This document shows, in pieces, positions 43,225 to 45,176 of a DNA stretch of 64,000 nucleotides. The DNA lies in NCBI GenBank assembly GCA_964016885.1, contig OZ024752.1, forward strand, positions 1,984,001 through 2,048,000, read 5' to 3'. The position numbers and the translations under genes were made by a program. This DNA comes from Eledone cirrhosa (lineage: Eukaryota). Within the stretch, counting starts at the first letter, position 1, and every line of letters begins with the position of its first letter. Below the pieces are notes generated by a model, which saw only the letters and a list, made by a program, of their open reading frames with translations, was not told the DNA's origin and did not search any database.

Positions 43225-43752
43225 TAGAATAAGTAAATATTTATATTATATTTTTTAATTTTGATTAATTTTGATTGTATATTAATTTTGATTTATTTTG
43301 AAAAATTGATTGAATTTTACTTGTTCTGCTTATCTTGATATATTTATATATATATATATTTATATATATATATATTTATATATATATATTTATATATATA
43401 TATTTATATATATATATTTATATATATATATATATATATATATATATATATATATATATATATATATATATATATATATATATTTATATATATATATATA
43501 TATATATATATATATATTTATATATATATATATATATATATATATATATATATATTTATATATATATATATATATATATATATATATATATTTATATATA
43601 TATATATATATATATATATTTATATATATATATATATATATATATTTATATATATATATATATATATATATATATTTATATATATATATATATATATATA
43701 TATATATATATATTTATATATATATATATATATATATATATATAATCTACGC

Positions 43753-43795
43753 GTAATCTACGCGTTTCATTCTTATTAGAAATCATCAGGATTAC
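43753..43795 (-). ncRNA. Minimal type I hammerhead ribozyme (unit 1)
   Basis: gtaatc-CTGATGA-t-ttct-aata-agaa-t-GAAAC-gc-GTA-gattac. Confidence 0.88.
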
Positions 43796-44064
43796 ATATC
43801 CAATGCTTTTATCGAGAACGACACAGCTAGAGACTTATAGAATACTTAGCTGTGTACAGGAACTGGTTTGAAAGAGCGGTAGCCGGTCCGGCAGAAATTA
43901 GAATTTGGATTTAATGCTCTGAAATAGCGATATATATGTGAAGACAAACATAGAATATTCGAAAATATTCTGTATGTTTATAATAAACATTTTGAAGACC
44001 CAATCGCTATAGAATAGAATACGTCACGTATTACAATTTGAGATTCTCGATAAAAGCAAGGGAA

Positions 44065-44107
44065 GTAATCTACGCGTTTCATTCTTATTAGAAATCATCA
44101 GGATTAC
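44065..44107 (-). ncRNA. Minimal type I hammerhead ribozyme (unit 2)
   Basis: Identical to 43753-43795. Confidence 0.88.
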
Positions 44108-44618
44108 ATATCCAATGCTTTTATCGAGAACGACACAGCTAGAGACTTATACAATACTTAGCTGTGTACATGAACTGGTTTGAAAGAGCGGTAGCCGGTC
44201 CGGCAGAAATTAGAATTTGGATTTAATGCTCTGAAATAGCGATATATATGTGAAGACAAACATAGAATATTCGAAAATATTCTGTATGTTTATAATAAAC
44301 ATTTTGAAGACCCAATCGCTATAGAATAGAATACGTCACGTATTACAATTTGAGATTCTCGATAAAAGCAAGGGAATACGTAATACGTGACGTATTCTAT
44401 TCTATAGCGATTGGGTCTTCAAAATGTTTATTATAAACATACAGAATATTTTCGAATATTCTATGTTTGTCTTCACATATATATCGCTATTTCAGAGCAT
44501 TAAATCCAAATTCTAATTTCTGCCGGACCGGCAACCGTTCTTTCAAACCAGTTCCTGTACACAGCTAAGTATTCTATAAGTCTCTAGCTGTGTCATTCTC
44601 GATAAAAGCATTGGATAT

Positions 44619-44661
44619 GTAATCCTGATGATTTCTAATAAGAATGAAACGCGTAGATTAC
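44619..44661 (+). ncRNA. Minimal type I hammerhead ribozyme (inverted unit)
   Basis: gtaatcCTGATGAtttctaataagaatGAAACgcGTAgattac read directly on the plus strand. Confidence 0.88.
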
Positions 44662-45176
44662 TTCCCTTGCTTTTATCGAGAATCTCAAATTGTAATACGT
44701 GACGTATTCTATTCTATAACGATTGGGTCTTCAAAATGTTTATTATAAACATACAGAATATTTTCGAATATTCTATGTTTGTCTTCACATATATATCGCT
44801 ATTTCAGAGCATTAAATCCAAATTATATATATATATATATTTATATATATATATATATATATATATATATATATATATATATATATATATATATATATAT
44901 ATATATATATATATATATATATTTATATATATATATATAAATATATATATATATTACGTTTCTGAATTTGTTTAGCAAAATTCTTTATCTGAAATCGTGT
45001 GTTGAAACCGATATTGTTATACTTTGGGAGGGTCATGTTGCCAACAAGAAACACACGCACCAGTTGTTTCACTTCCAATTTATTATATATTTATAAATTT
45101 ATAAATTTACAAATCTACAAACTTATAAATTTCTGGTTGGTTGGTTGGTTCCACAACCAGATAGTTGTTTATATAT

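Follow-up and report, generated by a model that had tools for sequence, protein, structure and literature searches.

A young two-armed hammerhead repeat in a (TA)n tract, likely written by Penelope-like machinery from both DNA strands

A 312-bp hammerhead repeat lies within a (TA)n tract at 43753-44824 of the window (the whole stretch of 64,000 nucleotides that was analysed), and it raises the question of how a non-coding unit came to be written there as a multimer, by which enzyme and from which form of its RNA. The locus consists of two inverted arms placed head to head, with both RNA 3' ends facing (TA)n. Positions within the 312-bp unit are given as registers, register 1 being the first base 3' of the predicted cleavage site. 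The features are as follows.

43338..43744, no strand: (TA)n target tract to the left; empty sites show that elsewhere in the 312-bp family the tract was there before the insertion
43743..43753 (repeated as 43754-43764), minus strand: 11-bp duplication across the predicted cut, where the left arm has its unusual 3' end
43753..44376, minus strand (RNA sense): left arm, 2.00 units, register 7 to register 6, with two complete hammerheads
43753..43795, minus strand: type I hammerhead, copy 1; predicted cut between 43759 and 43758
44065..44107, minus strand: type I hammerhead, copy 2; predicted cut between 44071 and 44070
43759..44070, minus strand: predicted 312-nt monomer from cut to cut, register 1-312
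44377..44379, no strand: head-to-head junction with 3 extra bases, alongside a 5-nt microhomology and a 7-nt local duplication
44380..44824, plus strand: right arm, 1.43 units, register 37 to register 169 (the long B end), with one hammerhead
44619..44661, plus strand: type I hammerhead, copy 3; predicted cut between 44655 and 44656
44787..44824, plus strand: 'tail' between the two 3' end sites of the family, register 132 to 169, which holds a clade-wide motif
44824..44954, no strand: (TA)n target tract, right side
44955..46600, minus strand: neighbouring Penelope-like element PLE-A, 5'-truncated, with RT and GIY-YIG frames, outside the repeat (left bound exact, right bound approximate)

The period of 312 bp reported in the initial annotation was recovered at 43753-44376 with 2.0 copies and 99% matches, and the near-identity of the copies also held, the three pieces of the unit at the locus differing at 6 positions. 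The unit has a GC content of 34% and, in agreement with its description as ORF-less, a longest stop-free frame of 56 aa. Each unit carries one type I hammerhead, as first described, with CUGAUGA at 44101 (-), 43789 (-) and 44625 (+). The ribozyme combines a 6-bp stem I (GUAAUC/GAUUAC), the CUGAUGA core, a stem II of 4 bp over a U.U mismatch, the GAAAC-GC-GUA segment and a palindromic stem III. It had been called minimal, which is right for stem III, but stem I and stem II (4 bp plus the U.U) are of canonical size by the figures in the accessible part of PMC4209133. The Rfam model HH9 matched all three copies below its gathering score (19.9-22.1 bits versus 52; E 0.047-0.25). Rfam miRNA matches near the locus were dismissed as chance similarity to AT repeats, and no internal Pol III A or B boxes were found on the sense strand of the unit with the box patterns used.

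The hammerhead was compared across 15 members of the wider clade. In this alignment 92% of the cells pair (23-44% in slid controls), and 12 of the 15 pairs change on both sides, all three helices covarying; because the structure was drawn by eye from the same sequences and the rows are related, the shuffle counts for this covariation are not probabilities. Core pair 3-8 is complementary in 15/15 rows, as U-A in 11 and C-G in 4, and the U3-A8 variant also occurs in the Penelope-like elements (PLEs) of Schistosoma (PMC4209133, available sections). The comparison indicates that the hammerhead is under selection. At one locus, L090, the cleavage triplet reads GUG in place of GUA in 5 of the 6 covered units, in both arms; the ribozyme there is predicted to be inactive, yet it was copied as multimers.

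The monomer was folded in circular mode, as had been proposed at the outset, and reached -69.6 kcal/mol (z -4.9 versus 100 dinucleotide shuffles, all of which it beats); the linear monomer gave z -4.6. The antisense strand folds more stably than the sense strand (z -6.8), so fold stability cannot tell the strand. The sense fold is branched and ~59% paired. The 15-bp closing stem that had been noticed by eye is borne out in the circular fold, where the three pairs tested have probabilities of 0.94-0.99. The further hairpins listed with it do appear in the minimum free energy (MFE) structure; two of them, gccgg/ccggc and aatacgt/acgtatt, have spacers of 1 nt and are one pair shorter than stated. 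The ribozyme is nearly free in the circular fold, an active-like fold lying 1.5 kcal/mol above the MFE. Cleavage is predicted to take place as a dimer, because the A15.1-U16.1 pair of stem III has a probability of 0.0 in the monomer and the ACGCGU palindrome can form a duplex of -9.5 kcal/mol. Both Rfam and a motif scan of the unit placed the hammerhead in one polarity only.

The genome (G000, 3.0 Gb) contains 612 exact hammerhead cores, a count that the initial annotation had recommended, and the reversed control gave 0. On C1 the first 100 cores are distributed over 36 loci, from which we estimate about 200-220 loci for the 312-bp family. We examined 63 of them, 40 being top BLAST scorers and the other 23 all those still missing from the C1 set. 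Insertions of 60 bp or more number 65 in these loci, L043 and L067 being one duplicated insertion. The mean divergence of the insertions is ~1.2%, that of a young family.

Two head-to-head arms with the RNA 3' ends outward make up 49 of the 65 insertions and a single arm the other 16. Nearly all RNA-sense 3' ends (108/114) lie at two internal sites, A at registers 125-141 (56 ends) and B at 164-173 (52 ends), the modes lying 132 and 168 nt 3' of the predicted cleavage site; the A range is ambiguous owing to TA homology. Of the 114 ends, 103 abut TA. The commonest A junction loses base 133 (27 cases; the base is kept in 12), which places A at 132 or just downstream and its offset to B at 27-36 nt. 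Every classifiable two-arm insertion pairs one A with one B end (43/43), and the remaining 6, the locus included, have one stray end. The complete C1 set gave the same picture, with 28/36 two-armed and 24/24 classifiable ones A+B. The central junctions (n=45; that of L053 crosses an assembly gap) comprise 20 short overlaps, 6 blunt joins and 19 inserts of 1-25 nt. Arm lengths spread smoothly from 0.1 to 22 units, and either arm can be the longer one; the longest array, of 22 units at L054, is a possible donor. The empty sites of L039 and L055, the two loci for which one was findable, already contain (TA)n; de novo synthesis of (TA)n is thus unneeded, and the view of the arrays as multimeric cDNA placed into a pre-existing tract is upheld.

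The initial annotation had related the ends of the left array, 6 nt past a predicted cut, to ribozyme cleavage. Among the 114 RNA-sense 3' ends, however, this one alone has that position, and the ends of the family lie at internal sites ~132 and ~168 nt after the cut. The 5' ends are even around the unit (chi-square p 0.24), with 8/112 within 8 nt of the cut (5.7 expected) and 2/112 within 3 nt (2.2 expected). With the 3' ends at A or B and no pile-up of 5' ends, the making of array ends by ribozyme cleavage is rejected for the family.

A 22-nt motif lies between the end sites A and B and has 23,957 copies in the genome. It is common to 310- and 311-bp families (~95% identical to the 312-bp unit) and is also present in 316-317-bp and older families (~60% identical). 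The 312-bp family is a minor young branch of this large clade. One sister, a 317-bp family (L049 7474-8264; L091-L110), has a U3-A8 hammerhead core and 1,627 candidate places; it shows the two-armed layout with ends at sites homologous to A and B, and among 11 distinct loci whose two ends were both classifiable, crude BLAST calls gave 8 A+B pairs and 3 other combinations. An old, 5'-truncated clade member with a decayed hammerhead and its 3' end in (TA)n occurs within the window itself, at 8866-9130 (-), and its relatives (~79% identical) occupy 1,660 candidate places. Another old two-armed member, L186 (C1:327.90 Mb), was caught within a 1.53-kb tandem repeat.

The locus copy is atypical of its family. 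The description of the left array as two units stands for its span, register 7 to register 6, but the 11-bp duplication at its left end had been overlooked, as had the inverted second arm at 44380-44824, which makes the tandem units one half of a head-to-head pair. The left arm ends at register 6 and not at A, with a stutter over the predicted cut, leaving B as the only one of the two family sites used here; its 5' end lies within one base of its 3' register, for which the chance expectation is ~1 in 112 arms. The two arms differ at two common polymorphic sites, making this one of 3 discordant-arm insertions among 38 arm pairs, and the right arm has an allele combination found nowhere else, with a switch between registers 253 and 2. 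Because of the end at register 6 and the differing arm haplotypes, two templates were probably involved, or a later repair: the odd end and the haplotype switch could stem from template switching at the cut, or from a later deletion with repair of the A end. A monomer could be released from the locus by the left arm only, and a transcript running through both arms would fold into a hairpin of ~445 bp.

To identify the enzyme, we compared these footprints with those of known elements. PLE insertions typically consist of an inverted 5'-truncated copy with a 30-40-bp tail on one end (PMC8557442, accessible text). The purified PLE protein PAc, as described in the available sections of PMC11167929, nicks and extends both DNA strands, starts at two internal RNA sites bounding a 30-40 nt tail, and is predicted or modelled as a dimer. 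The 312-bp family likewise has two alternative 3' ends, a one-sided tail, an inverted 5'-truncated copy and a microsatellite target. Since the paired A/B ends, the tail, the inverted arm and (TA)n all match PLE features, a PLE is very probably the writing enzyme, as had been proposed, and we hold the mobilisation of the whole family by PLE machinery with high confidence.

The neighbouring PLE-A carries a hammerhead-like motif too, at 45216, and its long 3' end lies in the (TA)n tract that also holds the repeat. Its family (L141-L144) is young, with ~2,800 candidate places and a 756-aa frame in L141, and pairs a short with a long end in the 6 loci where both ends are readable. We take PLE-A to be a PLE from its motifs and its architecture; it has a zinc-finger-like linker and, by its motifs, would be Neptune-like. 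Pfam returned a sub-cutoff GIY_YIG_2 match for the fragment in the window and zero matches for three full PLE-like frames, and PDB one weak match to a GIY-YIG-type endonuclease (E 0.27). PLE-A has a 60-nt tail, and four PLE-A loci showed no similarity to the 312-bp unit beyond weak BLAST matches. At L084 (4791-6090) a retrozyme arm with an A end stands head to head with a PLE-A arm with a long end, with no target DNA between them; this hybrid, present in 1/63 loci, shows at most that retrozyme and PLE-A RNAs can meet in one event.

Several other elements were recorded along the way. The window holds a second, different PLE-like fragment with RT and GIY-YIG-like frames at 40346-41592 (+), and at 40055 (-) a terminal repeat of hammerhead-like type, further copies of which adjoin many (TA)n tracts. 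Another hammerhead-like family, with a stem II akin to that of the 312-bp family, is found at 48100-48160 (+) and in L043, L063, L064 and L182, frequently as two short inverted copies that end in (TA)n. A ~500-bp hammerhead tandem family occurs at 50770 (+) and in the flanks of L039, L040, L051 and L084, and its internal (TA)n serves as a target for the 312-bp element. At L049 a degenerate TTAGGG-rich tract (6490-7120) directly follows a fragmented retrozyme arm. At L059 (4350-4374) an array joins, at its 5' end and in the same orientation, a truncated hammerhead that belongs to another element and whose full motif lies at 1833 in L066, suggesting a template jump between different hammerhead RNAs.

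The form of the template was addressed from the 5' ends and from sequence variants. The even distribution of 5' ends round the unit, with no pile-up at the cut, indicates that the template had no free 5' end there. At 23 polymorphic sites, picked from the data itself, differences amount to 1.6% between the arms of a locus, 2.8% between the units of an arm and 14.7% between loci, and 35/38 arm pairs share one haplotype. Against a background of 155 single-unit changes, eight rare variants, spread over 6 loci, are present in every covered unit of the two arms, and 5 of the eight are each confined to a single locus. Fixed rare variants and concordant arms are most simply explained by one circle copied for several rounds from both primers, and we consider it quite probable that a monomeric circle was the usual template.

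The same twin priming by a PLE might instead have used an uncleaved linear multimer, or monomers joined through template jumps, with no circle at all. PAc takes unprocessed RNA in vitro, where ribozyme cleavage is unneeded and hammerhead mutants insert normally (PMC11167929, available sections), and the unit number of L043/L067 changed after insertion, both of which are points against the circle. One monomeric circle also leaves unexplained the 17 of 68 multi-unit arms that mix haplotypes; such mosaics would suit a linear template, as would the haplotype switch of the right arm of the locus in the very stretch that holds the cut, and long possible donors such as L054 exist. A linear multimer, on the other hand, would call for one long donor for each of many haplotypes, and the 5 private variants fixed in the units of both arms require a step from monomer to multimer; jumps from cleaved monomers should have piled up 5' ends at register 1, where the count within 3 nt is no higher than expected. 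On this evidence we regard a linear template as unlikely. A further point against the circle is that of nine Xenopus retrozyme dimers, eight failed to cleave (10.64898/2026.07.22.740005, in the part available). RNA-editing scars were not apparent, A>G not being in excess among singletons (14 versus 22 T>C). Contigs of sequencing runs X1 and X6 carried mainly 310-type alleles, and run X4 gave a single self-closing 342-nt contig (312 + 30 overlap), a shape that a tandem DNA repeat gives as well.

The second arm might also have arisen without a second primer, by fold-back self-priming of a single cDNA or on an antisense template, as proposed for rotifer Penelopes. Self-priming has been invoked for the head-to-head repeats of PLEs (PMC3846280, accessible text), and the hairpin-rich unit and the haplotypes common to both arms speak for it, but a copy-back on a cDNA begun at A cannot give the extra 27-36 nt of the B end. 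Nor does it agree with the finding that the longer arm can be either one, or with the two 5' registers at the junction, which are mostly unrelated and not palindromic. We find this origin of the second arm highly improbable.

The initial annotation had itself named a case against its reading, that the unit might always be the pseudo-LTR (pLTR) of an autonomous PLE, and a satellite spread by recombination, its hammerhead inert, is a related option. Xenopus retrozymes do resemble PLE pLTRs (10.64898/2026.07.22.740005, available part), unit number can change after insertion, as at L043/L067, and ~63 of an estimated 220 loci were covered. Across those 63 loci, however, no same-strand PLE frame continues into the unit, and no RT-GIY-YIG ORF is flanked by the repeat in 39 loci of related families. 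A parent PLE was likewise absent from 15 isolated loci of the 22-nt motif and 5 others, and from 188 sequences (1.25 Mb) scanned with a clade nhmmer profile. L106 turned out to be a tail-to-tail juxtaposition. Recombination of a satellite would leave the dispersed insertion into (TA)n, the fixed paired ends and the helix covariation unexplained, and we give this pair of options very little credence.

The term viroid-like, also used at first, was dropped: size, lack of coding capacity, stable fold, hammerhead and the self-closing X4 contig would fit DNA traces of an RNA replicating from RNA to RNA, but the ribozyme is present in one polarity, the fold is branched, the contig has the shape of a tandem repeat and genomic templates number in the hundreds and bear retrotransposition footprints, so that such an origin is scarcely credible.

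We thus return to twin priming by a PLE protein. Our preferred reading, which we consider on balance likely, is that the locus is one young non-coding insertion made by a PLE RT-endonuclease that primed from both strands on a probably circular RNA. By analogy with known retrozymes, transcripts of tandem copies would first be cut by hammerheads whose ACGCGU palindromes pair, and the monomer closed by ligation into a 312-nt circle. Both strands of (TA)n would then be nicked by a PLE protein, probably dimeric, the target being known from the empty sites and the enzyme suggested by the footprints. One 3'-OH would start at A (~132) and the other at B (~168), as the observed pairing of ends implies. 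Each cDNA would extend beyond the cut by a length that varies and is not a whole number of units, as the arm lengths record, and the two cDNA ends would finally be joined through microhomology or short inserts of the kind seen at the junctions. A more specific version, to which we assign even chances, is twin-primed rolling-circle reverse transcription: a PLE dimer would sit on one 312-nt circle with one start site per protomer and extend both strands, and the motif between A and B would be a portable cis signal that lets any ribozyme-made circle enter (TA)n. This motif, with its ~24,000 copies, occurs in 310-317-bp families with different hammerheads.

The 312-bp repeat is, by its sequence features, a subfamily of the metazoan non-LTR retrozymes, with self-cleavage and a circle predicted, and the classification first given, a young non-coding hammerhead repeat of this animal kind, is retained. 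The unit is a non-coding tandem repeat of low GC within the 150-450 bp range, every unit has a hammerhead with at least two consecutive (two complete in the left arm), and the monomer fold is stable and self-paired in a way that is not strand-specific. The arms are plain multimers of no LTR organisation, with a coding partner in cis at 0/63 loci, which sets the family apart from the pLTR of an autonomous PLE. In relation to Avsunviroidae and viroid-like RNAs, as described in the available text of PMC7761336, it is alike in being ~300 nt, non-coding and hammerhead-bearing, but it differs in its genomic templates (the 612 cores), its retrotransposition footprints and a ribozyme in one polarity only.

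The metazoan non-LTR retrozymes of PMC7229834 are alike in unit size, low GC, type I hammerhead, stable circular fold and co-occurrence with PLEs. The closest motifs, matched by description, are axolotl HHR_Amex2 (U.U at the base of stem II) and HHR_Amex1 and its newt counterpart (palindromic weak stem III) (PMC7229834, available sections). The accessible part of that source has no description of two-armed inverted insertions into (TA)n whose 3' ends are fixed and paired, and our search of open-access papers found no report of two-armed retrozymes or of the 312-bp family; in this family a TSD is unreadable within (TA)n. Non-LTR retrozymes have been regarded as PLE derivatives on the basis of co-occurrence and pLTR similarity, the mechanism being called open (10.64898/2026.07.22.740005, available part); for the 312-bp family the support is instead insertion anatomy, a parent pLTR not having been found in the loci searched. 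PLE mobilisation and circle templates were thus proposed without insertion-level evidence in the accessible text of PMC7229834 and 10.64898/2026.07.22.740005, which leave the mobilising enzyme and the circle as template as open questions. To these the family contributes start sites at nucleotide level, a rule of strict end pairing, private variants common to both arms and a cis motif conserved across the clade; together they make both questions testable in vitro, with a PLE assay that already exists.

Within the PLEs, the non-autonomous elements of Chlamys such as MRC1 are also non-coding, PLE-mobilised and multicopy head-to-tail, but their 3' ends resemble those of autonomous partners, unlike the 312-bp unit, and PLEs with an N-terminal EN lack canonical hammerheads (PMC8557442, accessible text). 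The EN+ PLEs, including PAc (PMC11167929, PMC8557442 and PMC3846280, in their available sections), share with the family two start sites 30-40 nt apart downstream of the hammerhead, a one-sided tail, an inverted 5'-truncated copy and an AT-rich or (TA)n target. The 312-bp family differs from them in having no ORF, in its size of 312 bp versus 3-4 kb, in arms of many full units and in the strict pairing of a short with a long end (43/43), and it thereby provides a counted constraint on the origin of the inverted repeats and one-sided tails of PLEs.
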